In this document: piece by piece, positions 5,750-49,065 of the stretch
Position numbering within the stretch: position 1 is the first letter of the stretch
Layout: every line of letters starts with the position of its first letter
NCBI GenBank assembly: GCA_000434395.1
Contig: FR878803.1
Span: 13,172-77,171, forward strand
Direction of reading: 5' to 3'
From: Clostridium sp. CAG:568
GTDB taxonomy: Bacteria; Bacillota_I; Bacilli_A; RFN20; CAG-288
DNA length: 64,000 bases
The notes under the pieces: model-generated
What the model saw: only the letters and a program-made list of their open reading frames with translations
The model's database searches: none
Told to the model about the DNA's origin: nothing
Translations under genes and position numbers: made by a program

Positions 5750-5780
5750 CACTAATATATGTGGATAGATAGTCAAAAGA

Positions 5781-5810
5781 AAATCAAAAAAATCCACCAA
5801 AGGTGGATTT
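5781..5810 (-). terminator. rho-independent terminator after the SMC-like gene
   Basis: Perfect 9-bp stem AAATCCACC/GGTGGATTT with a 3-nt loop, followed on the minus strand by UUUUUUGAUUUUCUUUU. Located in the 21 nt between the SMC-like stop and comFA. Confidence 0.7.
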
Positions 5811-5821: not shown

Positions 5822-8800
5822 CTAAGAATTTGAATTAGATGTATTATCGTCAGTTGCTACCACTTTAGTTTCTTCCTGAGTCATGTCTGCTTTGATTTCA
5901 CCGATTTTCTTTCTTTTATCTTCATATAAATCGAGATAAGACATACGATGTTTCTCATCATGGATTGCAACCAAAGCCTCATCGACTAGTTTAGCCAAGT
6001 CTCTGAGCTTTTCAGCAGGTGTGGAGATAAGTCCTTGAAGTCCAAAGGATCTGAGCAAGGATACAGCTTCTTTGATACGAACACCATCCATCTTTGAGAA
6101 AGCTTCATCGAATATAACCAATCTCAAAGTATCGCTATCTTGAGTTACTCTATAAAGCTGAGCGAAGGAAGCTAATATTGAAATATAGAAAGGTGTTTGA
6201 GTTTCACCTCCAGATTGTCTCTTAAATGTTCTAGCCAAAGAAGATTCGACAGCATTATCATCAGTTCCACGTTTGACCAAAAGATCGAAGTTCAAATATG
6301 TACGATAATCTGTGAATTTCTCAATGTTGGCCAAGATTGCTTCCTTATTGGTAGAAGTTGAATCCTGAGCGTCTGAAATCAAAGAGAACAATTGATTCAT
6401 CAAATCCTTGTACTTTTCCATAAAGACATCTTCAGCATCTCCAGCTGATAAGAGCAAAGGATCCATCATCATGTTGTAATAATCGATGTAGTCTTTGTTG
6501 GGTTCGACAGTGAAACGATATCTATCACGTCCAAATCTCACATCAGACAAGGCATCGTTCAATTCTTTGATTTGAGATTGAACTGTAGTAATTAAACTTC
6601 TCAACTTATAAATGAAGTCATCTTTGAATTCCTTAATAGCATTTGCGTGAGCTTGCGCTATCTTCTCAGTATATTGAGGCAACAAGACATTGCTCAAACT
6701 ATCCAATTCTTTATCGAATGTCTCGTTAGAGGATTCATCTGTTGTATCATAAGAGAGATTGTATTTAGTGACATAAGCACTTCTAGTCTTCATCAAATTA
6801 TCACGAAGACTCTTTTGTTTCGATTGAGCTCTGGCAAATAATCTATTTGCTTCTTCTGCAATCTGAGAAACATCCATGGTGGAAGCTAATTTATCATACC
6901 TGGGCAAGTATGTTTCCTCAACAGCTTTAGGATCAAAAGCAGATATAGTTTGTTCTCCAGCCTTGACTGCCATTTGCTTTTCAGGAATAACCTCGTTTTG
7001 AATACGACGAATCTCAGAAGTATGTTCTCCTTTTTCAGCAGTGAATTGCTCTTTTTGTTGATTCAAACTAGCTATATCCTCATCGATAGCATGAATCTTA
7101 TCATCGATTTCTTTGACTGAAGATAATGCTCCTTCCTTCATTTGTTCTGTCAAACGACGAACATTCTCTTCTAATGCTGGAACGTTTTCAACTTCATTCA
7201 AATCATCGCGGTAAGTTCTAGCTTCGTTAGAAGACATGATTGCCATCATAGTCAAAGGTGTTATCTTTTCGACCAAAGAACTGAGCAAAGAAATCTTTTC
7301 ATCGATAGATACATACTCATCGTGTATTCCTTCTACCGAACCTTGGGAAACTCTAGTTCCAAGGAACAATGAAGTGACGCGTTTAGGATACCAGGTAGCA
7401 AAGCCTCTATATCCAGTACAATCGGCACAAAGACCATTTCCACTTTCTCTGGCTTCTTCAAAGTTTGCACATTTCTTTGTCTTTCCCAACAAATAATCTG
7501 AATAAGCTTGAGCACCTTCATCCTTCGAATCCACCAAGAATGCACAGCTATCTTCTCTAGCAGGATGTTCATTCATAAATTCGATAACTTTGGTAGAATC
7601 GACGATGTTAACTCCATTGAAGTCATAAACGTTGATCAAATCTTTCAAGATTCTTTGAGCTTCATTGTAATAGGAAGGATTTACAAAAACATAGAATCTA
7701 TTTCCACCAATACATGATTCAATTGCTGTAGCCCAATTAGGATCGTTGACATCGACCAAATCACAGAACTTCTTTACATAGGCATCAGGATGACGAGCAC
7801 ACAATCTGCTTTGCAAATCATCAACAACTTGTTTATATCTAGGTCCGAAAGGCTTAGCTCCACTATGAACGGATTTCAATTGAACAGCCAATTCAGTTTT
7901 TTTGTTGGAAAAATTATAGAGATACTGTTCTAGCTTCGTGTAAATAGAATAACCTTTTGATTTATATGAATCCATCTCTTGTTGAAGATGTTCCAAAGAT
8001 AAGACATCGACGCTTTGTTCATCGCAAGCTTTGCTCAAAGAATTAAATTCATCATAGATTTCATTTGAAAATTCACTGAATTCTGACAGTTCATCCTTAT
8101 CTCTATCATCAATTCCAAGTCTATCGAGGTTGATGTTCTTAAATGCCGATAAAAAATCGACTGCCTGTCTAGAAAGAGAATCGGCATAATTTTTCAACTC
8201 TCTCAAAATATTTTGTTGAGAGACTTTCAATGCTGCGATTTGACGTTCAAAGTTAGCCTTTTTTTGAGATAACTCATTAGAAAGACTAAAACCCGATGAT
8301 GAAGTCTTCTTGGCAAAATAGTCTTGCTTTTCAGCATTCAGTTCTCTGATTTGATCATCTATCAAAGCAACTTGACGAGCTAGATAATCCAATCTCTGGC
8401 GATGCTCTTCAACTTTGGATTCATAATCTCCCAACTGTCTCTTAGCATATTCCAAGTTAGCTCGAGCATGAATGTAGTTGAAACTAGCCATATCAGTTGA
8501 GATATTGTGATAATTCTCATAAGCTTCATGGATATCTTTCAGCAAAGAAATTTTATCTTGGATTCTAAGGGACTCAGTTTCCAATAATCTATATTGTTCG
8601 ATATTCTTCTGCATAGGAACAATATCGACTTTATACTGAACATCGCAGACAAATTCTGTAATAAATTTAGAAATATCAGAGATAGGTACAAAAGAAACGG
8701 ATTTCTTAAACAAAGAGAAATACTTATCTGGCAAATTGCCGAAAATAGTCTTTAAGAATTGGCGATACTGCTCATTAGAATCAAAGAACCTGGCTTCATC

Positions 8801-9307
8801 AGATTTGTAATTCTCACTGACAAATCTACTGAATTCCTTATAAGTCAAAGGACGAGGGGAAGACTTAGCATCTAACAAATCTTTGTTAGTGAAATTATTT
8901 GACGGGAATCCTGTATTCAAATAGAAGAAATGTCTATCGTCATGACCATCTGAAAAACAGTCGAAGACAATTCCTAAAGTGAATTGAGTCTTTTTCTTAG
9001 TATCCGCAAACTCCAAGGCGATATAAGTAGTGAAACGACCAGGACGAAGAGAAACGACATTACCATCTTTAGTTTCACTGATTTCTCCACGGAGATAACC
9101 GTTTAATGTTCTTCCAGTTTTTTCATTAGCAGCTTTATTGAAGTTTCTTCCTGTCGTATCACCTAAAAGAACAGTTTGAAGAGCATCAATAATAGTTGAT
9201 TTTCCAGTTCCGTTAGCTCCTGTCAAGAAAGTTATATTTTCAATATCGACTGTAGTATTTGTAAAATAATGCCAATTGATAAGTCTAAGTTTAGTGAGCT
9301 TTATCAT
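5822..9307 (-). CDS. SMC-like ATPase of the MukB/MksB/JetC family (long coiled-coil ABC ATPase)
   Basis: 1161 aa. N-terminus LTKLRLINWHYF...FLTGANGTGKSTIIDALQ (Walker A in a MukB-like head). Long helical, coiled-coil-like middle. C-terminus RQSGGETQTPF (signature-like) and LVIFDEAFSKMD (Walker B). Sits last after kleisin-like and KITE-like genes. Confidence 0.6.
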   Translation of the reverse strand: MIKLTKLRLINWHYFTNTTVDIENITFLTGANGTGKSTIIDALQTVLLGDTTGRNFNKAANEKTGRTLNGYLRGEISETKDGNVVSLRPGRFTTYIALEFADTKKKTQFTLGIVFDCFSDGHDDRHFFYLNTGFPSNNFTNKDLLDAKSSPRPLTYKEFSRFVSENYKSDEARFFDSNEQYRQFLKTIFGNLPDKYFSLFKKSVSFVPISDISKFITEFVCDVQYKVDIVPMQKNIEQYRLLETESLRIQDKISLLKDIHEAYENYHNISTDMASFNYIHARANLEYAKRQLGDYESKVEEHRQRLDYLARQVALIDDQIRELNAEKQDYFAKKTSSSGFSLSNELSQKKANFERQIAALKVSQQNILRELKNYADSLSRQAVDFLSAFKNINLDRLGIDDRDKDELSEFSEFSNEIYDEFNSLSKACDEQSVDVLSLEHLQQEMDSYKSKGYSIYTKLEQYLYNFSNKKTELAVQLKSVHSGAKPFGPRYKQVVDDLQSRLCARHPDAYVKKFCDLVDVNDPNWATAIESCIGGNRFYVFVNPSYYNEAQRILKDLINVYDFNGVNIVDSTKVIEFMNEHPAREDSCAFLVDSKDEGAQAYSDYLLGKTKKCANFEEARESGNGLCADCTGYRGFATWYPKRVTSLFLGTRVSQGSVEGIHDEYVSIDEKISLLSSLVEKITPLTMMAIMSSNEARTYRDDLNEVENVPALEENVRRLTEQMKEGALSSVKEIDDKIHAIDEDIASLNQQKEQFTAEKGEHTSEIRRIQNEVIPEKQMAVKAGEQTISAFDPKAVEETYLPRYDKLASTMDVSQIAEEANRLFARAQSKQKSLRDNLMKTRSAYVTKYNLSYDTTDESSNETFDKELDSLSNVLLPQYTEKIAQAHANAIKEFKDDFIYKLRSLITTVQSQIKELNDALSDVRFGRDRYRFTVEPNKDYIDYYNMMMDPLLLSAGDAEDVFMEKYKDLMNQLFSLISDAQDSTSTNKEAILANIEKFTDYRTYLNFDLLVKRGTDDNAVESSLARTFKRQSGGETQTPFYISILASFAQLYRVTQDSDTLRLVIFDEAFSKMDGVRIKEAVSLLRSFGLQGLISTPAEKLRDLAKLVDEALVAIHDEKHRMSYLDLYEDKRKKIGEIKADMTQEETKVVATDDNTSNSNS

Positions 9308-9319
9308 ATTTCAATCCTC

Positions 9320-10039
9320 CTAGAAACCGACAGGTTCATTTTTGTCTGCAGTAACGACACCTTCTTTAGACTCTTCTTTGTCTTGAGTGCTTTCATATGT
9401 CTCGCCATTTGAAGAAGAACTATCTTCATTTTGTTCTTCACTACCGGTTAAGAATTTATACAATGCGTTCATCTTGGAAGTAGAAATAATATATTTTATG
9501 GAAGGAAGAATGAAGAATGAATAATTGTTATCATTGAAGGATCCTCTTCCTCTAGCGATAATATTGAAAGAAGCCAAAGTCTTCATAGCTCCGGAAATAG
9601 TTTGTAAAGACAAACGCTTAGAGGCAGTAGATAATCCCAAGTCAGAAAGCTTTTGTCTCAGCTGAGTGGAATCCATAGCCACCTGCAATACATTTGGTTG
9701 TTTTTCTAATGAATCTTCATAGAAATCTCTTAGAGTATATATGACAAATGTAGTGGCAGTATCAACTCTTTCTCTATTCTTATCCAATGCATTTCTTAAG
9801 AAAATGACGCCGCAGTCATCATCTTTTGAAATGACCATATCGATGAAATCCAAATATTCTTCGAATAAAGAATAATGTTTTTCTATAAAAGTGTAATCGT
9901 ACTGAATTTTTTCAAGACCTGTAGTGACATCATAACGTTTTCTAACTATGAAACAATGATATAAAAGATTGTTCATCGTTTCAGAAAATTGGCTCTTTTC
10001 ACCAGTTGAAAGCTTATCGTAATCCTCTTGAAATGACAT
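9320..10039 (-). CDS. MukE/MksE/JetB-like (KITE) subunit
   Basis: 239 aa, a size typical for the MukE/JetB family. Sits between the kleisin-like and SMC-like genes, with 12-nt and 17-nt intergenic gaps. Acidic C-terminal tail. Confidence 0.5.
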   Translation of the reverse strand: MSFQEDYDKLSTGEKSQFSETMNNLLYHCFIVRKRYDVTTGLEKIQYDYTFIEKHYSLFEEYLDFIDMVISKDDDCGVIFLRNALDKNRERVDTATTFVIYTLRDFYEDSLEKQPNVLQVAMDSTQLRQKLSDLGLSTASKRLSLQTISGAMKTLASFNIIARGRGSFNDNNYSFFILPSIKYIISTSKMNALYKFLTGSEEQNEDSSSSNGETYESTQDKEESKEGVVTADKNEPVGF

Positions 10040-10056
10040 AAATAAATGGCTCCTTC

Positions 10057-11529
10057 CTATTTTATCCTCAAGACATATTCCGGAATTTGATAATGTCCGT
10101 TCATCGTCTTATCATCTATTTTCTCCATAGTGAAGAATGTCGTATTGAATTCAGCTCTTACCAAAGCGAGAATCAATAGAATTAAATCATTATCTTCAAC
10201 TAATGAAATCTCACTAGTTTTTATTTCTTTTCTCGAACCGAATGCCCTTCTCATAAACGACTCTACAGCTGCTTCAGAGAATTGACTTACTTCATTGTTC
10301 AAGAAATCATTCATCAAATCGTCGCTTTCATCAGAAATATCAGGAGAAAGTTCCATGGGATCCGGCTCTTCTCTTTGTGTTCTCTTGAAAGGCATGAACA
10401 AAGATCTATCATCAAATATGGAAGCTCTATGATAATCTACAGTATCGACCATCTTAAATAACAATGGGGAATTTTCCTCATTGATGTTAGGATTCTTCTG
10501 CAATTCGCTAGCCATAGAAGAAATTATCTTTTCTAACTTTCCTTTGATAGACTTATCGCTACCCGATAGGTAATTAACCTTCTTTTGAACAGCCTCAGTG
10601 TAATCGGCATTGGCCTTGTCGATTTCATCAAAAGATTTATTCAATCTATTGAATACATCGATTACTTTATTCAAATAAGAAATGACTAAATCTGTAGCTT
10701 TAGAAACTGAAAGAGAAGAAAAAGTAGAATCCATTCTAGCTTGAGAAGCTAGTTTTGCAACGATTCTCCCATCCCTAAGCCACTTATTCAATATTTCGAC
10801 AGTAGGTCTAGAATAAAGACCTAAAGAATCATAAGTCTTCATAGGATGGTAAATAGAATCTCCTACTTCAAATTTATAATCATCAAAATGCTGTTTCAAT
10901 ACTTCGTTAGGATTGAATACATTAGTCAACTTATGATTAAAAACGATGATCGAGTGATGCAAAAGTGTAACTGATAATTCCAATTCATCAGTATTCTTTA
11001 CTGCATTAGCCAAGGATCTAAACATATAGTCATCTTCTTTTTCATCTTCAAGTTTCAATTCAGAATACGTTTGATGAACCAAAGGCATATAAGATGAAAC
11101 ATCGCTAGTCAATTCATCCAACAATTCGAGCATCTTGATAGAGTAGGACGGAAGATAGATATAATCGACACCAGTCTTATAATCCTTGTCTATTTGAAAC
11201 CAACCACAACGAGATAATTTTCTAACTACGTAAGAGAATTTATCGGCAGATAAAGTGTCTTTAACATCGACTTCTTCTTCGACTTCTCTATCATCGTCCT
11301 TATCAGTATCGATAGAAAACAAAGACATGATATCTTGTCCATTTTCTCTCAACGCATCCATATAAGAACTACGAGTGATGGAAGAACGATAAATCTTTAA
11401 GCAATGATACAAGGTGACTAAAGCATAAGCATAAACTGCTTTATACTTTCGGGATAAAGGTGCAAAAAATCCATCCGGAAGACGGTCGAAAAGACGTGCA
11501 TTGTTATTTTCGGTCATTAATTTATCCAA
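10057..11529 (-). CDS. MukF/MksF/JetA-like kleisin subunit
   Basis: 490 aa, first gene of the three-gene set. Acidic linker segments (DKDDDREVEEEVD, PDISDESDD) between predicted helical domains, as in MukF-like kleisins. The annotated start is a TTG 7-8 nt after a GGGGGA RBS; an internal ATG lies 4 codons downstream. Confidence 0.5.
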   Translation of the reverse strand: MDKLMTENNNARLFDRLPDGFFAPLSRKYKAVYAYALVTLYHCLKIYRSSITRSSYMDALRENGQDIMSLFSIDTDKDDDREVEEEVDVKDTLSADKFSYVVRKLSRCGWFQIDKDYKTGVDYIYLPSYSIKMLELLDELTSDVSSYMPLVHQTYSELKLEDEKEDDYMFRSLANAVKNTDELELSVTLLHHSIIVFNHKLTNVFNPNEVLKQHFDDYKFEVGDSIYHPMKTYDSLGLYSRPTVEILNKWLRDGRIVAKLASQARMDSTFSSLSVSKATDLVISYLNKVIDVFNRLNKSFDEIDKANADYTEAVQKKVNYLSGSDKSIKGKLEKIISSMASELQKNPNINEENSPLLFKMVDTVDYHRASIFDDRSLFMPFKRTQREEPDPMELSPDISDESDDLMNDFLNNEVSQFSEAAVESFMRRAFGSRKEIKTSEISLVEDNDLILLILALVRAEFNTTFFTMEKIDDKTMNGHYQIPEYVLRIK

Positions 11530-11717
11530 ACTAGTATCCCCCTTTGTAAATTAAATGAAATCTACGACAAAAAACAAGTCATAGTTTCGGGATATTCCAT
11601 ACTTTATTATTATACTTTCTTATAGACCAAAATAATAAAGAAAAACAAGAGGTTTCTATACAAAGAGAAATATAAATCTCTTTATAGTTTCAACTATTCA
11701 AAACAAAGCATTCTACT

Positions 11718-14684
11718 TTATTCTTTTTTGACTTTGTTTTTTCTTCTTCTAGCCAAATACTTGATCAATTCCCATATTCCTACGCAGATCAAAAATATTG
11801 CAATAGTAGTCATATATCCACCAAAATCAATTCCAACATCTCTCCATTGAGCTGATCTATTTGGCGTATAAAATTGAGTCAATTCACTAAAACCCGCAAC
11901 ACAGAATCCAAGAACAGAAGATATTCCTAAGCCGATGAGCATCGTCTTAATCTTATTAGTGGCAAGGAATATAAATACGACTGAGAGGAAGGCAAAAACT
12001 GCAAACAACAAATAATGACCGACCAGTTTTCTTAGCTTCTTAGCCAAGGAAGAGAACATCACACTTATATCTCTATCGATAGTCAAATCGATATAAACTG
12101 AATATTTCACCAAAGTATCGTCACTTCCCAAAGTGACTTTGAGTGTTGTTTTTCCAATATCCAACAAAGAAATGTTTCCAAATTTATCAACACTGACAAT
12201 ATTATTTGTCTTATTTCCACTTGAATCCATACATTCAAAGCTCAAGTTTTTACATGACACTTTTTCTTTGGTAGTTATCCCTATCTTATAGTTCTTTCCA
12301 TAGAACAATTTAGCTTCATATCTCTTTCCATCATCGATAGAATTGAATGTTTCAGCCTTAAATACTTTACTATTTATAGTAAAAGGTGAGACAGTATCGA
12401 CTACTTGAATTTGTTTAGTCTTTTTCAAAGAAGGATTCGATATAGGCGTTACTGTAATTGTAGATTTACCGATTTTCTTTGCTTTTCCAACCCCATTTTG
12501 ACTGATAGAAATAACTGAGGAATCAGATGAAGTAAAGCTCACATCTTTGATTGATGCATTATTATTCATACTGACATCGATATCAAATTCACTTCCCAAA
12601 GCAATCTTTGAAAAATCATCCAACCCCTTGTTATCGCCAGGATAATAACCAGCATTATATACGACATCAAAACTATCAATATCGATGAAATTTACATCGA
12701 TTGTAAAATCAAAGCTTAATAAATCGTTTTGACGAGAGGTTATTTTAAATGAAGTACTTCCTTTCTTATTTGCGAAAAATATTAATTTGTCATCGTTGCA
12801 TACAACATTGTCGTTATTTGATGAAATAGAATAGGTTCCGTCATCAAATAAAACCTCATCATTTTTAGTTCCATCTTTGAATTGCCGATTAAAAGCAAAT
12901 TCGACATTCAAAGCTTTATAATCGTGATAATCTACACTGATAGTCGAATGGTTAGATAGAAGATTGTGACCTTCATCATAAACTCTCATAGTATTAGGCT
13001 TGTCGACTATACTAAAAATCAAATCCTCAGATATAGAATTATCGAGTTTAGAAACAAATCTAAACTTAACGTTTCCAGTTTGATTATTGGTAGTGATGGA
13101 GTATTGATTGTTTGATTCGACCAATTTGACTAAATTTTCCCCTTCTCTAATTGAAACAATCCATCCAGAGTATTTAAAACTAACAGGTTCAATTGAAATA
13201 TTAGAAAAGACATTGTCATAAATTTGATTTACTAGCAATTCATTTTTATCTGATTCGTTGGAAGAAAAATAATTGCCCAAAGAAATTCCACTGACAGAAC
13301 CAGTTTGAAAGTCATTTTGATACTGATAAGTGAAAACTATAGCATTGGAAGTATCATCTTTATCGACATAAAACTTGATCTGACCACTGACATCAGAATC
13401 AGTATTAGCTTTAAAGGTAAAAGACTTATAAGAATGACTTAAACAAGTTAATCTTGTCGAATCATATTCAATTTTGTAATTATTCAGTAAATATGCTTTG
13501 GAATTTATGTTTTTATATGGGATGGAAATAGAAAAAGAGTCTATGGTAACTTTGCTGGAATAATGAGAATTGGTGTGAATCGATGGGGTATAAGATCTCT
13601 TCAATTTCGATGTGTCTATTTGATCAGAAGTCAATTTTGATTTTTCTTTGACATAGACATCAAAAGAATTAGTTTCAATCTTTGATTTATCTTTCTTCAA
13701 ATAAGACAGTTTCAAATCCTTAAACGAATTAGATTTATTCTCATCTTTAGATATGATTTTGATTTGATTACTTTTAATCGATTTAAAAAATATTCCATCC
13801 ACTGATGGAAAATGAATTTTGGTCGAATCAAAAGTAGCGTTCGCAGGTGAATATTCAATGCTGACCGATATAGAGTCACCCATACTATATAATTCATATT
13901 TTGAATTTACCGAAATAGATTCAACTTCAACCGTTTGAACAATTTTATCTTTAACATTAAAAGTTGTTGAATCTTCAAATTTGTTTATTTTAGCATAAAT
14001 TATAGCTGTTCCGGATTTCTTAAATTCGACTCTTCCATCAGAGTCAACACTACAAATAGTATCATCGCTAGAGCTAAAGGCAACTGTCGTGTAAGTGACA
14101 TTACTAGGCTCAATATGAGTTTTTAATGTATATGATTGTCCTACATAGAAAGTTTCTTTGCTAGATGGTTTATTAGTAATCACAATCGATGTTGCTAAAA
14201 CCGGATCAACAGCAATAGAGAATTTCTTTATTAGATTTGAATTTTTACTAGCTGTGAAAGTCAATTCTAAAGATGGGCTTTCCTTAATGAATGTAATTGA
14301 ATTATCAGCACCAATTGTAGCAAAGGAACTATCACAGTCAATATTGATTCCTTTAAAAGAAGTATCTTGAGGAATATAAGTAAAATTATAATAAATAGTA
14401 TCTCCGACATAAAAAGTTGAATTAGACAAATCTAAAATAATAGACTCATTTTTATCCTTATAAAAAGAAACACCGAAATCTTTTATCTCTTTTATTCTTT
14501 GACTATCATAATTGTCATTGATTTCATCCTCAAACAATCCGGTGAAATCATTACTTTGTTTAGCACTTTTACTCCCAGGCATCGCACTTTCTACAAATAT
14601 CAAAACAGCGCAAACAATGTATAAAAGTAAAAATAAATACTGAACAATGTTTTTGAAAACATTGTGTTTTTTCGCTGTTGTCAT
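11718..14684 (-). CDS. large surface protein: N-terminal signal anchor, multiple Big_2-type Ig-like domains, C-terminal VanZ-like polytopic membrane domain
   Basis: N-terminal TM segment YLFLLLYIVCAVLIFV. Big_2-like segments, e.g. VTYTTVAFSSSDDTICSVDSDGRVEFKKSGTAIIYAKIN and DVSFTSSDSSVISISQNGVGKAKKIGKSTITVTP. C-terminal 4-TM region containing GFSELTQFYTPNRSAQWRDVGIDFGG, which matches the VanZ-family DE.HQ.F.PGR....DV.ID..G motif. Confidence 0.55.
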   Translation of the reverse strand: MTTAKKHNVFKNIVQYLFLLLYIVCAVLIFVESAMPGSKSAKQSNDFTGLFEDEINDNYDSQRIKEIKDFGVSFYKDKNESIILDLSNSTFYVGDTIYYNFTYIPQDTSFKGINIDCDSSFATIGADNSITFIKESPSLELTFTASKNSNLIKKFSIAVDPVLATSIVITNKPSSKETFYVGQSYTLKTHIEPSNVTYTTVAFSSSDDTICSVDSDGRVEFKKSGTAIIYAKINKFEDSTTFNVKDKIVQTVEVESISVNSKYELYSMGDSISVSIEYSPANATFDSTKIHFPSVDGIFFKSIKSNQIKIISKDENKSNSFKDLKLSYLKKDKSKIETNSFDVYVKEKSKLTSDQIDTSKLKRSYTPSIHTNSHYSSKVTIDSFSISIPYKNINSKAYLLNNYKIEYDSTRLTCLSHSYKSFTFKANTDSDVSGQIKFYVDKDDTSNAIVFTYQYQNDFQTGSVSGISLGNYFSSNESDKNELLVNQIYDNVFSNISIEPVSFKYSGWIVSIREGENLVKLVESNNQYSITTNNQTGNVKFRFVSKLDNSISEDLIFSIVDKPNTMRVYDEGHNLLSNHSTISVDYHDYKALNVEFAFNRQFKDGTKNDEVLFDDGTYSISSNNDNVVCNDDKLIFFANKKGSTSFKITSRQNDLLSFDFTIDVNFIDIDSFDVVYNAGYYPGDNKGLDDFSKIALGSEFDIDVSMNNNASIKDVSFTSSDSSVISISQNGVGKAKKIGKSTITVTPISNPSLKKTKQIQVVDTVSPFTINSKVFKAETFNSIDDGKRYEAKLFYGKNYKIGITTKEKVSCKNLSFECMDSSGNKTNNIVSVDKFGNISLLDIGKTTLKVTLGSDDTLVKYSVYIDLTIDRDISVMFSSLAKKLRKLVGHYLLFAVFAFLSVVFIFLATNKIKTMLIGLGISSVLGFCVAGFSELTQFYTPNRSAQWRDVGIDFGGYMTTIAIFLICVGIWELIKYLARRRKNKVKKE

Positions 14685-14709
14685 TAAGATTTATCCAATC
14701 GTAATATAA

Positions 14710-15891
14710 CTAATCAGACCATCTAGCAAACAAAGAAATCGTATGATTGACTATTGTTAAATCAGTGAATTGCCCTGAATTGACATCATCTCTAGATGTG
14801 TACCATCCTTTGAAAGTATGTCCGTTTTTCTTAATCACAGGAAATTCATCCAAATCGACGTAACTTCCCCCATTGACTTTAATAGGATAAATATTTGTCC
14901 CTAGGGCTTTTTCAGTACCATCAGAATCCTTGAAATAAAGAGTTTCACTACTATCAGTCAAAGCGTTGAAATAAACAAAATACTTTTGACTTTCATTTGA
15001 AGAGGAACCTTTGATGGAGAATATCTCAGACCACGCTCCATTCTCTTTCGTATAAACCCCACCAGTGCTGATGTTCAAATAGAAATCACCATCATTACCA
15101 AAGCTTCCTGCAGGTATATCGCTTCCGTATCTCCAAGTAGAACCATCTTTTCCATCTTTAGTCTTTTGAATAAAGAAATAACTCCAAGCACCACTCTCAT
15201 AATTGACTTTAAAAATCCAATCATTCTTATGAGAATTGTTGATCATTTCCAATTCTTCATTATCAGCATTATCGACTGTTACCATATCGATACTAGAAAT
15301 TGAATCACCTTGTTCACCTTTTTTTATAGTAACAACTTTACTGGTATCATTTGTCAATTTAATTGTCACTACAGTGTCGCCAGAATCATCGATATTAGTT
15401 TCAATATCGGCGATTCCAACACCATCAATTCCGTCTTTTCCACCAGGAATTGTAAATTTGTCTGAACTATTATCAGTATAAGTAATAGTTACATTCAAAT
15501 CATTGCTGCCTTCAACTTGATTTATGACTACATCGGATATTCCTTTTCCGTCTTTTGGACCGGGAATTGTCACTATAGTATCATCAATGCTTGAATCAGT
15601 ATAATGAATTGTCAATGTGGTGGATTTATCCTCATTTTCAACTGCATCAACTGAGGCGATTCCAACACCTTCCTTTCCCGAGATTCCAGCTGGGATAGTA
15701 AACTTGGTCGGAGTAGCTTCTTCATCAGTATAAGTGATTGTAACGATGACATTTCCGTTCTCATCACTATCATGAGTGACAGACTTGATCTGCAAAGCTT
15801 GATCAGTATTGAAAAAAGAACACGAAGCTAACGGCATCAATCCAATAGACATAGAAGCACATAACACAGCGATTAATCTTTTCATTTTCAT
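14710..15891 (-). CDS. lipoprotein with three ~35-aa internal repeats and a C-terminal Listeria/Bacteroides (Flg_new) repeat domain
   Basis: Signal peptide plus lipobox MPLASC. Repeats TIPAGISGKEGVGIASVDAVE / TIPGPKDGKGISDVVINQVE / TIPGGKDGIDGVGIADIE. C-terminus NGHTFKGWYTSRDD...LFARW fits the Flg_new repeat. Confidence 0.55.
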   Translation of the reverse strand: MKMKRLIAVLCASMSIGLMPLASCSFFNTDQALQIKSVTHDSDENGNVIVTITYTDEEATPTKFTIPAGISGKEGVGIASVDAVENEDKSTTLTIHYTDSSIDDTIVTIPGPKDGKGISDVVINQVEGSNDLNVTITYTDNSSDKFTIPGGKDGIDGVGIADIETNIDDSGDTVVTIKLTNDTSKVVTIKKGEQGDSISSIDMVTVDNADNEELEMINNSHKNDWIFKVNYESGAWSYFFIQKTKDGKDGSTWRYGSDIPAGSFGNDGDFYLNISTGGVYTKENGAWSEIFSIKGSSSNESQKYFVYFNALTDSSETLYFKDSDGTEKALGTNIYPIKVNGGSYVDLDEFPVIKKNGHTFKGWYTSRDDVNSGQFTDLTIVNHTISLFARWSD

Positions 15892-18365
15892 ATACCTTTA
15901 CCTCCCCTGAGGTCGTCCGATGGACTTTGATCAAATAGATACGGCTTTTCTCCTTCATTCAAATTCAACTTACCATTCGAATAGAAGTAGAACGGATGTG
16001 AGCCTGTGACACAAAGAACAGCTCTAGCTAACGCTGCGGCTATAGAATTAGTATATCCGCCACTGAAATAAGACTTTAACATATCTAGTGTCTCCTTCTT
16101 AGAAAAGATCATATTCGAATCAGAAGATTCAATCTCAACATCCGAACTATTCAATCCTCCACCATAGAAGACGACAGCAGTATTCAAATAGTTCTTATCA
16201 TTTATTTTATACAAATATCCGTTGGATTCAGCTAATTTTTTTAATACATCCTTAACTTTGAAGAAATCATCTATGGACATTCCTTCATAGTCCTTTCCAA
16301 GACTTGCTAACAACAACGATAGTTGCTCATAAATCAATGCTGAAGTCATAATATCATCTATGTCCTTCCAATCATAGAACAAGCTATTTCCAGTAATATT
16401 TAATTTGATGGGATAGCTAGTTCCACCGATTTGATCATATTTACAAGTCATTCCCATGCTTCCTAATAGTCCAATGATAGAAGTAGGAGAGCCGTTATAC
16501 ATCATAGGTCCATTGAAGGATGTCTCGACACCTATTGAGAATACACCTGAATTTGCAAATGATGTATCCTTGACATTTATTACAGCATCGTATTTCTTAG
16601 AGCCGTTAGAATCGATTATATTCTCATCATTATCTAATCCATTTTGGATACTTTCAAATGTCTTTCCTGATGATTGAGAAGACTGACTCAATCCATCCAT
16701 CAAAATCGATTGAACCATATTATCCATATTGAATCCATCATTGGCATCACCTTGGCTGTCATAATAACTAGTGAATTGACTAGTCTTTATACTTCCATCT
16801 GACATCACAATAGAAGCTTCTTTGCTTTTATCTACTTTATTTTCTAAATTACTTCCCACCAATAGCAAGAATTCACCCGAGTCTTTCAAAATAGAATTAT
16901 CTATTGTCAATCCATCAGTGGAAAATGCACGTATTATATTCTTACCATTGGACAAAACACTATTTTGAACAGTGTCATTTTTTCCGCTCACCTCTAGTAC
17001 TGTACCAGTATAAAAGTAATTGTACATTTCATTTTGTGCATCTGAATTTTGGATTCTTATATTATCTAAAGTGATATTGTCTCCATCCAACAATAATCCG
17101 ACATTGTCTTGAGCATAAGCTTCAACAAAAGGATTTGTCGATATATCACCTATTCCTATATAAGGAAGAGGTCCATGGAAATAATCCTTATTAGCATCAG
17201 GAACAATAATTCCATTTCTATTCTTATCAGGAAGTCCATTTCTAGGGAAAGCTAGATTATTCAAATTGATGGTAAATCCATTCCCATAAAAATCTTTTTG
17301 CGCTCTTATTCCAGCAATTAATTTCTTTGAAATAGGTTCAATCAAAGCATCTTTATTAGTCTCATTAAATTCATCGATATAAGTTGTGTGATATGTGGAT
17401 TCAAATTCATAGTATTCATTCGAGAAAGAAAATGAATCAGTGTCAAAGCTATAATTTCCAAATAGTTTGTCAGTCTTAGCATCTGATTTAAGTTCGTTTT
17501 TATATAAAATCCTTTTTTCATTGCTAGGGTCCACTCCACTAGCAACATATACATCTGCTAAAGATCCTAGCGATGTCTGCATAACAGCTGGATGACCAGT
17601 CGAAGATTTGTTGGTGCACATCAACAAATCGTTATAGTTATAAACATTGACACCGTCTTTGACTATATTGAATCTATAAGTATTTGAAACATTATCATCT
17701 AAAGAACTGACAAATGTTATGAACGCATCTCCATGCCCATTAAAGGAAATCTCCTTAGAGCCATCATCGAAAGATATATTGTCCGATTTCGATAAAACCC
17801 TATAGGAACTATGTTCGTCAGTATCTATGACGCATTGAATATCGAGCTTAATCTTTGAAGCGACTGTATGTAATCCATCATATTCCAATGAAGAATAAGA
17901 GGGATCGTATTGACCAAAATCCAAGTATGATTTAGAACTTTGTCCACTTACATTTCCTTTATAATTGACGATGATCACACCTTTATCATAACAATATGCG
18001 TGGAAAGTTTTAGAAACAGTCTTCTTCTCATTAGAACAAGTCACATCTATCTCGCCCTCATTATTGACTTTAAGATTGAAATTATCATCATTTTGCACAA
18101 TCTCTGCCACATCATCCGAGGATGAATTAGATAAAGACCAAATTAAATCATTACCATCAGCTAAAATATTATTAGGATTGCTGACAGGAGTAGCTTCTAA
18201 CTTATATGTGTTATTGGTCTTAAACCCCTCATTTTGCCTATAATTCCAAGATATATCTGAAATATCTACTGCAACAGCACGAGTCAAAATTGTCACTGTC
18301 ACAAAAGAGAGAATACCCAAGAGGAATGGAATGATAAGAAGGATGACTAAAGTTTTTCTTTTCAT
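15888..18365 (-). CDS. secreted or surface protein with a probable right-handed parallel beta-helix region
   Basis: N-terminal signal anchor KTLVILLIIPFLLGILSFVTVTIL. The central region has PbH1-like repeats (NSVLSNGKNIIRAFSTDGLTIDNSILKDSGEFLLLVGSN). 4-nt overlaps with both neighbouring genes. Confidence 0.4.
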   Translation of the reverse strand: MKRKTLVILLIIPFLLGILSFVTVTILTRAVAVDISDISWNYRQNEGFKTNNTYKLEATPVSNPNNILADGNDLIWSLSNSSSDDVAEIVQNDDNFNLKVNNEGEIDVTCSNEKKTVSKTFHAYCYDKGVIIVNYKGNVSGQSSKSYLDFGQYDPSYSSLEYDGLHTVASKIKLDIQCVIDTDEHSSYRVLSKSDNISFDDGSKEISFNGHGDAFITFVSSLDDNVSNTYRFNIVKDGVNVYNYNDLLMCTNKSSTGHPAVMQTSLGSLADVYVASGVDPSNEKRILYKNELKSDAKTDKLFGNYSFDTDSFSFSNEYYEFESTYHTTYIDEFNETNKDALIEPISKKLIAGIRAQKDFYGNGFTINLNNLAFPRNGLPDKNRNGIIVPDANKDYFHGPLPYIGIGDISTNPFVEAYAQDNVGLLLDGDNITLDNIRIQNSDAQNEMYNYFYTGTVLEVSGKNDTVQNSVLSNGKNIIRAFSTDGLTIDNSILKDSGEFLLLVGSNLENKVDKSKEASIVMSDGSIKTSQFTSYYDSQGDANDGFNMDNMVQSILMDGLSQSSQSSGKTFESIQNGLDNDENIIDSNGSKKYDAVINVKDTSFANSGVFSIGVETSFNGPMMYNGSPTSIIGLLGSMGMTCKYDQIGGTSYPIKLNITGNSLFYDWKDIDDIMTSALIYEQLSLLLASLGKDYEGMSIDDFFKVKDVLKKLAESNGYLYKINDKNYLNTAVVFYGGGLNSSDVEIESSDSNMIFSKKETLDMLKSYFSGGYTNSIAAALARAVLCVTGSHPFYFYSNGKLNLNEGEKPYLFDQSPSDDLRGGKGI

Positions 18366-19966
18366 ATGTTTCTAACCTCCATCTTTTTAAAATAGGTAGA
18401 ACTTTTCTTTAAGAAGAAAACCATGACAAGAATAGATAAAATAAAAGTCAAACCTAAATCAAAATACAATATTCCAACTCCTTTCATAATCGTGAAATCA
18501 AATCCGATATCAACCAACACCAACAACATCGGATAAACTATTACACTATATGAAAACAAAGTAGAGAATTTCTTCTTCACCGCACCTAAATCATGCATAT
18601 CCATGATGACACCGCCAAAATTCATTATAACTAATAGCAACAATCCTATAAACAAGAAGAAAAAGAATGACGATAAGGTTATGTTATCGGTCAAATAACA
18701 AGCCAGGACAGTTATAAAATATGAAATAGAAGTCAAAGATAAAGGAATTAATACTTTAGTCAGTGTGATCAATTTATCATTGATTGGCAACAACTTCACA
18801 TTCATCAAATTCTGACCTTCCACAGAAAAAGAAGACGATCCACTTGAATGAATGACTAAAACAAACTCTAAGAGCAATAACATTTGTATCAAAGTCATCA
18901 TGTCTGGAACGAACATCAATAAGACTCTAAGATTCTTTTGGAGAATTGTATTTATAGAAGATAAGACAGCAAAGGATAAGAAAGGCAGCATTATCAACAA
19001 AGCAGTATAAGAAAATGTGTTTCCACTATTTCTAAAGATAAGCATCAATTCTTTCTTAATAAGACCTTTCTTCATATCGCCTATAGACTTGTATTTTCCA
19101 CCGGTTTTATTCTTATTGTGATCATCTCTTTGATTTATAATCGTATAAAAAGTAACAGACAAGAAATATCCGATTACCAAAAACAAGAGAAGAAGACCTA
19201 AAGAGATCAATACACAAGAAAGAATATTTTTAAATTTTATAACGGGAGAAAGAATAGAATAAACAGGAAGAAGGAAAGGGCACATACCATCTATGGCTTT
19301 AATGAACATAGAGGAGAATATATCCTTAAAAGAATAGTTATCTAACACTTTGAGAAAGAGGTTTAAACAAACTTGATATAAATAACAAAGACCTACGACT
19401 ATCAAACTAGCACAAATAAACTGGAGCCATTCTTTATTTTGAAGAAACTTATATATAACTTGTACCAGTACGACTAAAGTAAATATCACACCGATTGAAA
19501 ATAAGGAAATAATGAATGGATATAAAATACAAAAGACGTAATAATAAGGGATAAATTGCCTAAGAGCTCCATAAGTGACAAGGATAGGAAAAGACATTAT
19601 AAAAGACTCTATCACTTGATATAAATAGACATAAATCATCTTAGCTATGATTTTACTATCAGTACTTATGCATAAAGGAGCAAGAATCATAGAATCTTTC
19701 TTGTCGAACATTACTTTTCTAGCTCTGACTAATCCTTCTATTATTCCTAAAATAAACGTAATAAAAATAGAAAAGACTAAGAAATCAAAACTAGAGTCAG
19801 CGGAATAAGCGCTAATCTTTGTATCTAATGAGTAAGTTAAATAAGAAATTAGAGCAATCAAAAGACAAGCTGCTATAGTTTTTAACAATATAGCTATCAA
19901 AGTGGATTTATTGCCACTTCTAGCCTTAGCCAATTTAAATTCCTTATTGACTAACTCAATAATCAT
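18362..19966 (-). CDS. ABC-2 type transporter permease (polytopic membrane protein)
   Basis: 534 aa and almost entirely hydrophobic, with more than 10 predicted TM helices. Overlaps the upstream ABC ATPase stop by 4 nt. Confidence 0.55.
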   Translation of the reverse strand: MIIELVNKEFKLAKARSGNKSTLIAILLKTIAACLLIALISYLTYSLDTKISAYSADSSFDFLVFSIFITFILGIIEGLVRARKVMFDKKDSMILAPLCISTDSKIIAKMIYVYLYQVIESFIMSFPILVTYGALRQFIPYYYVFCILYPFIISLFSIGVIFTLVVLVQVIYKFLQNKEWLQFICASLIVVGLCYLYQVCLNLFLKVLDNYSFKDIFSSMFIKAIDGMCPFLLPVYSILSPVIKFKNILSCVLISLGLLLLFLVIGYFLSVTFYTIINQRDDHNKNKTGGKYKSIGDMKKGLIKKELMLIFRNSGNTFSYTALLIMLPFLSFAVLSSINTILQKNLRVLLMFVPDMMTLIQMLLLLEFVLVIHSSGSSSFSVEGQNLMNVKLLPINDKLITLTKVLIPLSLTSISYFITVLACYLTDNITLSSFFFFLFIGLLLLVIMNFGGVIMDMHDLGAVKKKFSTLFSYSVIVYPMLLVLVDIGFDFTIMKGVGILYFDLGLTFILSILVMVFFLKKSSTYFKKMEVRNI

Positions 19967-20733
19967 TTTTTATCTCCTTTATATATGGAGAAGAACAAAT
20001 TCCTCATATCCGTCTTCAAATAAGGATTACGAGATGTTAAATCAAAGGTAGTTTGAATAACACCGTTATTCAAAAGACACGCCTTTGTAGCCACATCAAA
20101 AATGAAATCTATACTATGTGAAACTATTAAAATTCCTTTCTTAGCTCTCTTAAAGTCGTTTATTACATCGACCAAAGTCTTATAGACCATAATATCCAAT
20201 CCGACTGTAGGCTCATCCAACACCCAAAGATCTGGGTTATGGATGATAGAAGCCATCAATGCCACTTTTTGTTTCATACCATGAGAATACTCACTGATAC
20301 GTCTCTTCATATCAAATTCAGGCATATCAAATTTGATCAGCAACGCCTGATAATTCCTATGGAATACCTCATCGATCATCTGATAAGATGAACCGATGAA
20401 TTTCAAATATTCCTCACCTGTCATCATCTCATAGAGGATAGGTTCAGATGGAACATATCCTAAATTCAATTTAAAATTAATTGGATCTTTATCCAAATCC
20501 AATCCATCCAATTTAACGATTCCGTCATTCTTTGTTTTCAAACCGACAATACAATCCAAGGTAGTTGATTTACCAATACCATTCTTACCAAAAAGACAAT
20601 AGCATTCACCTGGATTAACCATGAATGACAATTCATTTACAACAACACGTTTACCATAGGATTTAACCAATTTCTCGACTTGAAGAATCGGTTCTATTTC
20701 AACTGGATTTTTTTCATTCTTTTCCTCTTCCAT
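19963..20733 (-). CDS. ABC transporter ATP-binding protein
   Basis: Walker A GKNGIGKST, signature SHGMKQKVALMASI, Walker B LWVLDEPTVGLD, H-loop SHS. Confidence 0.8.
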   Translation of the reverse strand: MEEEKNEKNPVEIEPILQVEKLVKSYGKRVVVNELSFMVNPGECYCLFGKNGIGKSTTLDCIVGLKTKNDGIVKLDGLDLDKDPINFKLNLGYVPSEPILYEMMTGEEYLKFIGSSYQMIDEVFHRNYQALLIKFDMPEFDMKRRISEYSHGMKQKVALMASIIHNPDLWVLDEPTVGLDIMVYKTLVDVINDFKRAKKGILIVSHSIDFIFDVATKACLLNNGVIQTTFDLTSRNPYLKTDMRNLFFSIYKGDKK

Positions 20734-20736
20734 AGA

Positions 20737-22137
20737 TCAATCCTCCTTTCTTAAAATACTCTTTATCCAGAGATTAAATGAGTCATCTTCATTTTTAAAA
20801 TAAGACATACTGGAATCACAATTCAAGCAATGAGCCTTAGTTCCAAAGTTATAAACATTCCTACTTCCACATACAGGGCAGACTTCGAATATGTTCTTCA
20901 CTTTAAAGACAAGTCCTAAACTTTTTATTAGATTCATAAGACTAGTTTGATCGTTCTTATAATATGAAGATACAAGAATCTTATTGTAATAATTAGATTT
21001 GTTAGAAGCAGTTATAAAAATAGAATTATCAAATATCTTCTCATCATTCTTCTTTTTAGTTCTAATAGGCTTTAATGATTTTCTATCAACTTTTCTAATC
21101 ATGTGGATTATAGAACTACTCTTCTCACCTTTGTAATCTAAATCAATAATCAACGATAGATCAGCTCCTTCTTTCAATGAGTAAGTCATCTGATCTTTCA
21201 CAAATACGATAGGATTAAATTCTATAAAGCCATCCTTATTCATTTTGAATATTTGTCCATCTAGATCAACACCACATGTGTCCAACAAGTTCAACAGCCT
21301 CAAGACAATAAAGTTGAAATAACTTTTATCCATACAATCAGAAGGATAGTTTTGATTCAAATAATTATCTAAATAAAATTTATAACAGTAAGAATAAAGA
21401 GGGTTATGAATCAAGACATTTGTAGGAATTATGTCTTTCTTAATTTTATAAGGAGAAACAAATTTATAAAATTTGCTAGATTTAATAAACTTAATATATT
21501 TCTTGGCCTTGCCTAGTTTTTCAGTGAAGTCCGGTCTCTTGTCAGGAATATCATAGAATTCTCTATCGATAGGTCCTTTAAATAAAGGTAATTCATTTAA
21601 GAATGAATGAGATGAATAAGTTAAAGAAGGCATTTCATAAGATTCAGCCAGCGAAGAGAAATAATCTTCTTCCATTAAAGAGAAATCATCGATGTCTTCG
21701 CTCAGTAAATCTACTAGTAGACAAATAAACTTGTTTTCATACATAATGACAGAATCTATAGATTCACTAGTATGAACAAATTCAGGGATTTTTTCACCAT
21801 TTTTTTCTTTCCAAAGAGAAATATCTCTCATCGTATCGATAAAACCTTTTTGGTCTAAGCTTGATACTAAATCACTTCTCTTCACCAATCTTTCACTATC
21901 AGTTTTAAAGACAGGCTTTCTAACGATGGATAAGATTCTTTCCAAAACCTTTGTTAAAGAATCTATTTTATCTAAGGCATCTTTGAAATTTAATTCTTCA
22001 TCAGAAGGCAATACATACTGCTTATTCTTTATTAAATCCTTGAGATTCCTAAAATTTGTAGGCTTTGAAAACACGCTCCAAGTCCTGGAGTAGAACGATC
22101 TCAGTACACCAACATTTTTCTTAGTTTTCAAGTCCAT
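20737..22137 (-). CDS. hypothetical protein with a C-terminal C4 zinc ribbon; possible nuclease-like partner of the upstream McrB-like ATPase
   Basis: 466 aa. C-terminus CPVCGSRNVYNFGTKAHCLNCD. Acidic motif EGADLSLIIDLDYKGEK, which could be a PD-(D/E)xK or a Toprim-like DxDxxG motif. Starts 10 nt after the McrB-like gene stop. Confidence 0.35.
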   Translation of the reverse strand: MDLKTKKNVGVLRSFYSRTWSVFSKPTNFRNLKDLIKNKQYVLPSDEELNFKDALDKIDSLTKVLERILSIVRKPVFKTDSERLVKRSDLVSSLDQKGFIDTMRDISLWKEKNGEKIPEFVHTSESIDSVIMYENKFICLLVDLLSEDIDDFSLMEEDYFSSLAESYEMPSLTYSSHSFLNELPLFKGPIDREFYDIPDKRPDFTEKLGKAKKYIKFIKSSKFYKFVSPYKIKKDIIPTNVLIHNPLYSYCYKFYLDNYLNQNYPSDCMDKSYFNFIVLRLLNLLDTCGVDLDGQIFKMNKDGFIEFNPIVFVKDQMTYSLKEGADLSLIIDLDYKGEKSSSIIHMIRKVDRKSLKPIRTKKKNDEKIFDNSIFITASNKSNYYNKILVSSYYKNDQTSLMNLIKSLGLVFKVKNIFEVCPVCGSRNVYNFGTKAHCLNCDSSMSYFKNEDDSFNLWIKSILRKED

Positions 22138-22147
22138 ATAACAAAGA

Positions 22148-23977: not shown

Positions 23978-24045
23978 GTTTTATATTCTCCTATCTTTAG
24001 ACAAACTTACAAACACTAGCGATTTATTTAGAATTATAATCAAAC

Positions 24046-25047
24046 CTAAGAACCATCACTAGAAACCTCAGATTTAGATTTATCTTCACCCATATCAGTC
24101 TCATCATCAACTTTCTTTTTTTCGATAAGCTTGTCATTTGCAAATAAATACGATTCACCTTTGAACACAAGTTTTTCATATGATGTCTGTTCGACATCTT
24201 CACTGCTGTCATACTCCGCTGAAAATGGTAATGTGTTTAATAAGAAATCAGTTTTTTTAGAAATGGATTTTTGATATTTATCGCTATAGTATTCATACAT
24301 ACCAAAGCAATATAAGACACAGAAAATAGTAATAATTCCAGAATTGCTTTGAAGGAACACTATGAACGCTCCAACTCCTTGAATTCTAAAGTTTGTGTAA
24401 TAACCTACAATGCGATCATAAGAAAGCGATTCTTTATATTGAGATCCGACATCAGAAGCATTATTAGAGTCACCTTGAGTTATGAATGTTTTGGTGCCAT
24501 CATTTTCTTTAATTTCGATAACACGGTGAACAATCACAATATTTTCATCGTTTCTATAAGCTACAACATCATAGAGCTTCACTTGATCAACATCTTTGTA
24601 CTTTTGAATTTGAATAATGTCATACGTGTTGAATTGATTATTCAAATTATTAGTTTTCAAATACGTATTTGCCTCATTTTGTTGACTCATAGATCCAGAA
24701 CCTATGACCACCATCGCCTTATCTCCAATCATAGTCACACCAGATGTAAATCTGTTAACCAAGGAATAAATGAAGAAAGCAGCAACAACTCCAAGAATCA
24801 AATAGGAAATAACCTTTCCGACAATTCTCATTGCTTTTCTTCTCTTGCTTTTTTCAAGTTTGGTTTCTTCAATTACATTGTCTAAGAGATACAAATCATC
24901 TTCGCCATTCTCTATGGTATGAATTTGAGATAAAAAATAATGTCTAAATAAAAATGTAAAAACCAATGAAAATGATAGAAGACAAACTATAGTTACAATC
25001 AAAGAAATAATTTCTAGTGTTTGCATTAATATATCCCTAAGCGGCAA
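24046..25047 (-). CDS. SipW-like (ER/archaeal-type, S26B) signal peptidase I with a C-terminal extension
   Basis: Nucleophile box VVIGSGSMSQ, His box IVHRVIEI (a Ser/His dyad rather than Ser/Lys), GDNN-type box ITQGDSNNASD. The catalytic domain is flanked by TM segments. Confidence 0.65.
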   Translation of the reverse strand: MPLRDILMQTLEIISLIVTIVCLLSFSLVFTFLFRHYFLSQIHTIENGEDDLYLLDNVIEETKLEKSKRRKAMRIVGKVISYLILGVVAAFFIYSLVNRFTSGVTMIGDKAMVVIGSGSMSQQNEANTYLKTNNLNNQFNTYDIIQIQKYKDVDQVKLYDVVAYRNDENIVIVHRVIEIKENDGTKTFITQGDSNNASDVGSQYKESLSYDRIVGYYTNFRIQGVGAFIVFLQSNSGIITIFCVLYCFGMYEYYSDKYQKSISKKTDFLLNTLPFSAEYDSSEDVEQTSYEKLVFKGESYLFANDKLIEKKKVDDETDMGEDKSKSEVSSDGS

Positions 25048-46000: not shown

Positions 46001-46015
46001 TGATATAAAACTTAA

Positions 46016-46047
46016 AAGACTCCATCAAATGATGGAGTTTTTTTATT
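46016..46047 (+). terminator. rho-independent terminator ending the BMP ABC operon
   Basis: Stem GACTCCATC/GATGGAGT(C) with loop AAAT, followed by TTTTTTTATT. Confidence 0.75.
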
Positions 46048-46117
46048 CACTTCAAAGAAGTAATTGTGAATTCATTAATAGACAAAAGGTTAAATTTCGA
46101 AGTTAACCCCATTCATT

Positions 46118-49034: not shown

Positions 49035-49065
49035 ATATTCCTCCTAATGTGCATATATTTTGGCA

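Follow-up and report, generated by a model that had tools for sequence, protein, structure and literature searches.

A 64,000-nt stretch of the Clostridium sp. CAG:568 genome (contig FR878803.1, positions 13,172 to 77,171; hereafter the window) carries on its minus strand a three-gene operon encoding JetA, JetB and JetC, the subunits of a type I Wadjet system, which constitute a complex of the structural maintenance of chromosomes (SMC) type, and no gene for JetD, the Toprim nuclease of such systems. The same operon, also without jetD, was found in 31 related species, which fall into a single clade; in them it occupies a largely conserved chromosomal location and is under strong constraint. 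We regard it as probable (about 0.6) that JetABC of this clade is a functional SMC motor derived from a type I Wadjet, that JetD was lost in the ancestor of the clade, and that the motor now plays a role in chromosome organisation or segregation resembling that of MksBEF.

Type I JetABC and the search for JetD

The listing of open reading frames (ORFs) places jetA (10057..11529, minus strand; the kleisin subunit, 490 aa from a TTG start), jetB (9320..10039, minus strand; the KITE subunit, 239 aa) and jetC (5822..9307, minus strand; 1161 aa) in the same direction and in kleisin-KITE-SMC order, with gaps of 17 nt between jetA and jetB and 12 nt between jetB and jetC. The first-pass annotation, made from the letters of the window, had described such a tightly spaced, co-directional trio with the same protein lengths, to which we can add the strand. 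Other gene callers begin jetA at an ATG four codons downstream, yielding 486 aa. JetA matches PF18982 (DUF5716) in Pfam at 1.2e-70, over model positions 14-433 of 434, and PADLOC JetA1 at 2.9e-87; JetB, a DUF4194, MukE-like protein, matches PF13835 at 1.8e-17 and JetB1 at 1.1e-73, and a comparison of it with solved structures gave no match. JetC, an ATP-binding cassette (ABC) ATPase of the SMC type with heads, coiled coil and hinge, is covered almost end to end by JetC1 (E=0, 1082 bits, model positions 1-1092 of 1097); its Pfam domains are AAA_29 at 1e-19 and the generic head domain SbcC_Walker_B at 6e-23, with a weak SMC_hinge match at residues 515-621, and among solved structures the JetC chains of E. 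coli and P. aeruginosa (8AS8/8BFN and 8DK2) come closest to it.

The motifs from which the SMC had initially been recognised are all in place: LINWHYF at the JetC N-terminus, the Walker A motif GANGTGKST (9194..9220), the ABC signature SGGE (6203..6214), and the Walker B and D-loop segment VIFDEAFSKMD (6086..6118), which contains the previously noted IFDEAF, each of them on the minus strand. The Wadjet/Mks-type identity proposed for the operon was upheld by the Pfam and PADLOC profile searches. A grouping of the large protein with Rad50/SbcC, RecN or BrxC, which would have spoken against that identity, did not materialise, as the top 16 PADLOC matches of JetC are all JetC1 and the gene is flanked by jetB and comFA, with no partner of the SbcD kind beside it. 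As judged by these profile matches, the operon proteins are full-length type I JetA, JetB and JetC, and the family assignment is unambiguous. NCBIfam yielded no equivalog for any of them; the exact window JetC is deposited as CDA37827.1 under the annotation “SMC domain protein”, and 1,911 sequences are grouped with it at 90% identity.

We searched for JetD with a profile built from seven verified JetD1 proteins, run against all six-frame segments of at least 30 aa. Whatever the frame, matches in the 64-kb window were no better than E=2.8, and those in the JetD-less loci of related species, each taken with flanks of 10 kb on either side, no better than E=0.5; as a positive control, the same profile recovered all nine JetD-bearing distant loci at E<1e-150, with JetD directly after jetC. 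At loci L042 and L047, the ORF overlapping the jetC stop is JetD1 (PADLOC, 7e-137 and 2e-108). PADLOC disclosed no JetD among 15 window ORFs, a set that took in every ORF left unmatched by Pfam, nor was any JetD-type family (DUF2220/DUF3322) present among the precomputed Pfam matches of window genes, the content of which is of a housekeeping nature (ftsK, M16 peptidases, ACPS, a glgB-like amylase, rplM/rpsI, ABC transporters and a tRNA cluster). The lack of JetD in the window, as initially perceived, is thus confirmed by three kinds of search. It extends to the relatives, in which a downstream jetD had seemed worth looking for: none was found at the 31 related species loci, and no JetD-type domain occurs within 10 kb of four further database homologues (P0058, P0061, P0157 and P0134; 44-55% identical to the window protein), which were not used to derive the pattern, so that JetD was not found at any of 35 independent loci within these flanks.

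No fourth gene was found to accompany jetABC consistently in the related loci. An unannotated gene of 340-400 aa directly 3′ of jetC in five of them (L015, L028, L059, L060 and L061), and three genes away in L024, was considered as a replacement effector and rejected: it belongs to a predicted membrane-protein family, without Pfam or PADLOC matches, which is tied to glgC, lying directly upstream of it in the subclade of the window (L015, L024, L028, L048, L059, L060 and L061), and is absent from the window itself. Another candidate for an effector acting in trans, the stand-alone HNH endonuclease at 39449-40342 (297 aa, with weak PtuB- and restriction endonuclease-like PADLOC matches), was set aside as well, since it lies beside rplM-rpsI at a distance of 30 kb and shares no synteny with jetABC in relatives.

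Could jetD have been lost at a mis-joined jetC/comFA junction? The window may come from a metagenome assembly, and an adjacent JetD hidden by mis-assembly had been named at the outset as an outcome that would overturn the idea of a nuclease-less operon. However, the junction, consisting of jetC, terminator and comFA with a 72-bp spacer, is identical in at least 24 independent assemblies from many samples and assemblers (ENA, NCBI and Logan), none of which has JetD there, and among the contigs compared neither a comFA context without jetC nor a jetABC-free strain was seen. Moreover, related species are also without jetD, each with a different downstream gene. Given this recurrence across independent samples and assemblers, and with comFA not seen there without jetC, the absence of jetD is not an assembly artefact, and a mis-join, being refuted by these comparisons, is scarcely conceivable.

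Descent, selection and the JetD docking site

When a single genome of each species was scanned, 49 jetABC loci were obtained, of which 31 have no jetD after jetABC and encode JetC proteins 38-64% identical to that of the window. In the JetC tree, all 31 are united in one clade with 100% bootstrap support, and their sister, L035, which is JetD-positive, joins them with 100% support as well; the closest sequences that fall outside it belong to complete JetABCD operons of Clostridia, as seen from the tree and from PADLOC. At least 119 further JetC clusters belong to the clade as well. A database search with JetC gave over 1,000 homologues (E<=1e-20), and the best 120 of these are all at least 44% identical to the query. 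Its members appear to be small-genome gut Bacilli of the RF39/RFN20 type, with the placement of individual loci in these orders being provisional; both are gut lineages with genomes of 1.5-1.9 Mb and about 30% GC (PMC7301438). In this respect, the label of L038, Paludibacteraceae, evidently reflects a mis-binned Bacilli contig, and the labels Alistipes, Bacteroides and Prevotellaceae found on other loci are equally implausible.

The gene order around the operon is conserved in the relatives, running from ftsK, M16 peptidases, ACPS, a glgB-like gene and an acyltransferase, through an AMP-ligase and HGSNAT in some cases, to jetABC and then to glgC-glgD-glgA; the last three, recognised by sequence, are the next genes after jetC in most of the 31 loci. 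The four additional database loci share this synteny, with NTP_transferase and Glyco_transf_5 Pfam matches marking the glg genes. The genes upstream of jetABC in relatives are homologues of window genes found at 25-38 kb. In the window species, jetA is separated from the conserved block by an insertion of 13.6 kb that carries surface-protein genes, and comFA-comFC take the place of glgCDA; the operon has therefore survived rearrangements on both of its sides. Pairwise distances of JetC and of the syntenic glgB-like protein are strongly correlated (Pearson r=0.88; 190 pairs, 20 taxa), JetC being the more conserved of the two (mean p-distance 0.41 versus 0.47), and median identities to the window proteins are nearly the same for JetA, JetB and JetC (47%, 46% and 45%) as for FtsK and the GlgB-like protein (44% and 46%). 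Taken together, monophyly, synteny, co-divergence and matched identities argue for a single loss of JetD followed by vertical descent, and comparison of these sequences indicates that jetABC has descended vertically, at a constant housekeeping site, ever since one ancient loss event.

Outside the clade, two further groups have type I JetABC without JetD after jetC: two Izemoplasmatales loci (L044, 3745-6987, and L045, 10001-13243), the downstream ORFs of which look thioredoxin-like, RsmE-type and MiaB-type as judged by their N-terminal sequences only, and three loci from Desulfotomaculia-like genomes (L041, L043 and L051), which display an unusual SGGG signature motif. Loss of JetD thus looks recurrent in Firmicutes.

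For eight close species pairs, the ratio of nonsynonymous to synonymous substitution rates (dN/dS) was 0.007-0.067 in jetA, 0-0.18 in jetB and 0.011-0.085 in jetC; in seven of the eight pairs the values for the three genes are 0.01-0.08, and the jetB value of 0.18 comes from the pair L007-L008. These ratios are as low as, or lower than, those of ftsK (0.09-0.11) and the glgB-like gene (0.04-0.05). The Walker A motif, the Q-loop region, the signature, the Walker B/D-loop and the H-loop region are essentially invariant in the clade, with Walker A retained in 31 of 31 loci and in 120 of 120 homologues (the best 120 of more than 1,000). By this measure, JetABC is intact and under strong purifying selection throughout the clade. 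A decaying Wadjet remnant, on its way to becoming a pseudogene, might be suspected from the absence of JetD and from locus L038 (10001-13373), where jetC is split into two ORFs of 507 and 623 aa by a frameshift or a sequencing error. Yet the ORFs are full-length and intact in 31 species and 119 further clusters (from the same best 120 homologues), and jetABC has been kept in genomes of about 1.5-1.9 Mb (PMC7301438). With dN/dS so low in most pairs and the catalytic motifs intact, decay is excluded by the selection analysis, and we consider it highly improbable.

The JetC subunit itself may bear a trace of the loss. In the cleavage-competent E. coli structure, JetC residue F919 inserts into a hydrophobic pocket, attaching the aCAP domain of JetD to the JetC larynx, and the F919E substitution abolishes restriction in vivo (bioRxiv 10.1101/2023.11.03.565488). 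A single-sequence phmmer comparison set F919 opposite a gap in a low-confidence loop of the window JetC, and was replaced by mapping through a profile of C-termini from JetD-positive Firmicutes JetC proteins. In that alignment, R918-F919-V920 of E. coli and R-F-I of P. aeruginosa correspond to a conserved S-L-F within the JetD-positive larynx pattern G-x-S-L-F-[SD]-x-x-F-x-x-[KR]-[YH]. In the JetD-less Bacilli clade this stretch of the larynx is two residues shorter, reading G-D-A-E-x-[LV]-F-M-E-K-Y, and in the window it is represented by GDAEDVFMEKY (6410..6442, minus strand), from which the SLF pair is missing; none of the 31 clade loci has the pair, and neither does any of 119 full-length homologues (among the best 120 of more than 1,000). 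The element aligned to the JetD-docking residue thus appears to have been deleted in the entire clade, and we interpret it as a putative scar of JetD loss.

JetB of the window ends in an acidic, Ser-rich tail (9323..9445, minus strand, from the translation; ...KNEPVGF). Tails of this kind, disordered and acidic, are found throughout the clade (L007-L040, L055), and carry recurrent short motifs: of 34 tails, 20 have an SLFD-like motif and 15 have DIPV/DIPF, VFPV or a terminal P[VT]GF, with neither class represented in any of the eight JetD-positive outgroups. We take these motifs to resemble the clamp-binding (QLxLF), SSB-tip (DDDIPF) and FtsZ C-terminal (DIPxF) peptides. They may constitute a partner-recruitment motif gained after JetD loss, and might conceivably couple the motor to the machinery of replication or division.

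The same motifs could be read in favour of retained anti-plasmid defence with an effector encoded elsewhere, either a distant JetD or an unrelated nuclease acting in trans and recruited, for example, through the SLFD and DIPV/F motifs of the JetB tail. All experimentally characterised type I JetABC complexes work with a nuclease, the N-terminal segment of JetB is retained, and the JetD searches extended over the window and the 10-kb locus flanks. Such an arrangement is nevertheless difficult to reconcile with the absence of JetD near 35 independent loci and of any conserved fourth gene, with the deletion of the JetD-docking element of JetC, and with the location of the operon in a housekeeping synteny block, where it co-diverges with its neighbours; furthermore, we found no report of a trans-encoded JetD in the literature. 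We therefore consider it unlikely.

Operon borders and the rest of the window

The intergenic region upstream of jetA (11530..11717, minus strand) contains a candidate -10 box, TATAAT, at 11614-11609, as read from the sequence, and a ribosome-binding site, AAAGGGGGA, at 11545-11537, 8 nt ahead of the TTG start of jetA; a consensus promoter scan listed no full -35/-10 pair in front of the gene, and the promoter is a candidate only. At the other end, 11 nt past the jetC stop, the operon is closed by an intrinsic-terminator-like hairpin (5780..5810, minus strand), AAATCCACC-TTT-GGTGGATTT followed by TTTTTGATTTT, in which a 9-bp stem at 5810-5790 precedes a T-run. As the first-pass annotation had it, comFA (DEAD/Helicase_C) comes next; it is followed in turn by comFC. 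The longest comFA ORF begins at TTG 5800, inside the stem of the jetC terminator; its true start is most likely the ATG at 5749 (387 aa), on which other gene callers agree, and which leaves the 72-bp spacer. A functional tie between jetABC and comFA/comFC, which we also considered, finds no support, as the two are adjacent only in the window species and in L034, where they are convergent. A search of the window for a parS-like site found none.

The 13.6-kb block between jetA and the HGSNAT/AMP-ligase genes (11718-25047) consists of large, mostly unannotated genes for secreted or surface proteins together with an ABC ATPase, and no such block is present at this position in relatives. Its ORFs include those of 988 aa (Big_2 and VanZ), 393 aa (Flg_new), 825, 534, 466 and 609 aa; for the last of these (22148-23977), PADLOC indicates the candidate family PDC-M26A (4.7e-41). 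The stretch with the lowest GC content in the window (0.27), at 46000-49600, harbours a helix-turn-helix regulator (46826-47437) and a Fic-domain protein (47985-49034; PADLOC SoFic at 8e-36), which adjoin a tRNA-Thr gene (49448-49524), and it may represent a small mobile or defence islet. Finally, a Y-family DNA polymerase with IMS domains (59624-60907) is paired with an adjacent ORF for a YolD-like protein; cassettes of this composition are often linked to mobile elements or damage tolerance.

Proposed role and relation to known SMC systems

According to the scenario that we favour, a large clade of gut Bacilli with small genomes goes back to an ancestor that would have lost the Toprim nuclease JetD from a type I JetABCD system. 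By analogy with published JetABC and MukBEF complexes, JetC dimers bridged by the JetA kleisin and by JetB KITE dimers would assemble into a dimer-of-dimers, an ATP-driven DNA motor which, in the absence of JetD, would be expected to load onto DNA, translocate along it or extrude it, and clamp it, with no cutting involved. The role retained would then be in chromosome organisation or segregation, as in the case of Pseudomonas MksBEF and mycobacterial MksB, and not in plasmid destruction; an MksBEF-like role appears most likely because the operon behaves in evolution as a core chromosomal gene set.

Several considerations weigh against this scenario. The chromosomal role is deduced from evolutionary behaviour, and an important non-nucleolytic role in defence would likewise be compatible with strong conservation in a genome that is streamlined. 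The searches for JetD were confined to the window and the 10-kb flanks, and JetD or an unrelated effector might lie far away, unlikely as this seems. The N-terminal segment of JetB, which in other systems is predicted to contact JetD, is not only retained but conserved in the clade. The mapping of F919 is of moderate confidence, the alignment posterior in the larynx loop being only ~0.7. MukB, which has no JetD, keeps D-L-F-E at the larynx position, and the hydrophobic pair is also kept, as LF/IF, in the JetD-less L041/L043/L051 and L044/L045, so that loss of the pair in the clade may have another cause. The idea that the presence of a larynx plug betrays a JetD partner was accordingly dropped on account of the MukB DLFE: with MukB and two JetD-less groups keeping the pair, its presence is not diagnostic of JetD, and only its loss is informative.

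A defence role of the kind just mentioned could take the form of non-cutting restriction of plasmids or other small circular DNA, in which complete loop extrusion would leave the element compacted, silenced or mis-segregated, an action like that suggested for eukaryotic Smc5/6 on episomes. JetABC alone recognises small circles and stalls on them, and a clamped state with U-shaped DNA forms without JetD; indeed, the action of JetABC has been likened in a review to the compaction of circular DNA by Smc5/6 (PMC10586767). The host of the window carries the competence genes comFA and comFC right next to the operon, which makes uptake of DNA probable, but this adjacency, being limited to the window species and L034, is not conserved. 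Vertical inheritance and conservation at housekeeping level fit a constitutive cellular role at least as well, and we know of no bacterial example of such restriction. Overall, it strikes us as quite unlikely. Returning to the three options left by the first-pass annotation, the nuclease-less, MksBEF-type condensin is the best supported, the decayed Wadjet is excluded, and an effector encoded elsewhere is unlikely.

A more far-reaching version, in which JetD-less JetABC has replaced Smc-ScpAB as the main or the only chromosomal condensin of the clade, is at present doubtful. If true, it would represent an independent Firmicutes replay of the proposed Wadjet-to-MukBEF transition, caught together with a close JetD-positive outgroup, the scar of a docking plug, and new motifs in the JetB tail. 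The transition from Wadjet to condensins such as MukBEF and MksBEF has so far been a hypothesis drawn from very distant comparisons. The present clade offers a well-sampled case, comprising more than 100 sequence clusters, 35 genomic contexts, a close JetD-positive outgroup, continued function and a change at the docking site, and makes directly testable the question of what changes when an SMC immune motor is domesticated; interest in it would rise sharply if Smc-ScpAB were absent from these reduced genomes. To our knowledge, pipelines for annotation of defence systems demand all four Wadjet genes, and surveys of condensins look for Smc or MukB. Public labels of the clade proteins are “SMC domain protein”, “EcfA2” or “uncharacterized”, and with labels so generic and such search practices, a widespread SMC complex of abundant human-gut bacteria has remained effectively unannotated.

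Comparison with known systems shows that JetABC of the clade is most similar to the type I Wadjet JetABCD of E. coli GF4-3 and P. aeruginosa PA14 (also known as MksBEFG or EptABCD), with which it shares full-length matches to the JetA, JetB and JetC models and the gene order. It differs from them in the lack of a JetD gene in the operon, in the lack of the JetC larynx segment aligned to F919, in the extra short motifs of the JetB tails, and in occupying a fixed chromosomal position with vertical inheritance, as opposed to the variable defence-island context. With Smc-ScpAB, the expected housekeeping condensin of Firmicutes, it has in common the general SMC-kleisin-KITE logic, but JetC scores 36 bits on TIGR02169, against a cut-off of 729, and JetA and JetB are not ScpA and ScpB. 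Two genomics papers on RF39 and RFN20 do not mention smc, scpA or scpB, and a B. subtilis SMC sequence used as a probe had no match in the loci compared, which are small and uninformative as to Smc-ScpAB.

The γ-proteobacterial MukBEF, a vertically inherited chromosomal condensin, has the same dimer-of-dimers SMC/kleisin/KITE architecture and no nuclease, and it has been suggested that its ancestor was Wadjet-like and that it took the place of Smc-ScpAB (PMC10586767); in sequence, however, JetC displays only a weak 57-residue match to the MukB N-terminus (3.7e-07), and there is no match to MukF or MukE. The closest parallel in organisation is provided by MksBEF of Pseudomonas aeruginosa and MksB of mycobacteria, three-gene kleisin/KITE/SMC sets without the MksG/JetD nuclease. 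[quoted passage not shown] The hallmark of the MksBEF type, a stable, vertically inherited chromosomal set under purifying selection, is also displayed by jetABC of the clade. The comparison is one of published descriptions, and the loss in the clade took place in a different phylum and was probably independent, since the clade has as its sister group a system of Clostridia that is JetD-positive. Our literature searches met with no account of a JetABC clade lacking JetD in Firmicutes, RF39 or RFN20. Thus, nuclease-less derivatives of Wadjet have already been recognised, and what would be new here is their independent domestication in a Firmicutes lineage.

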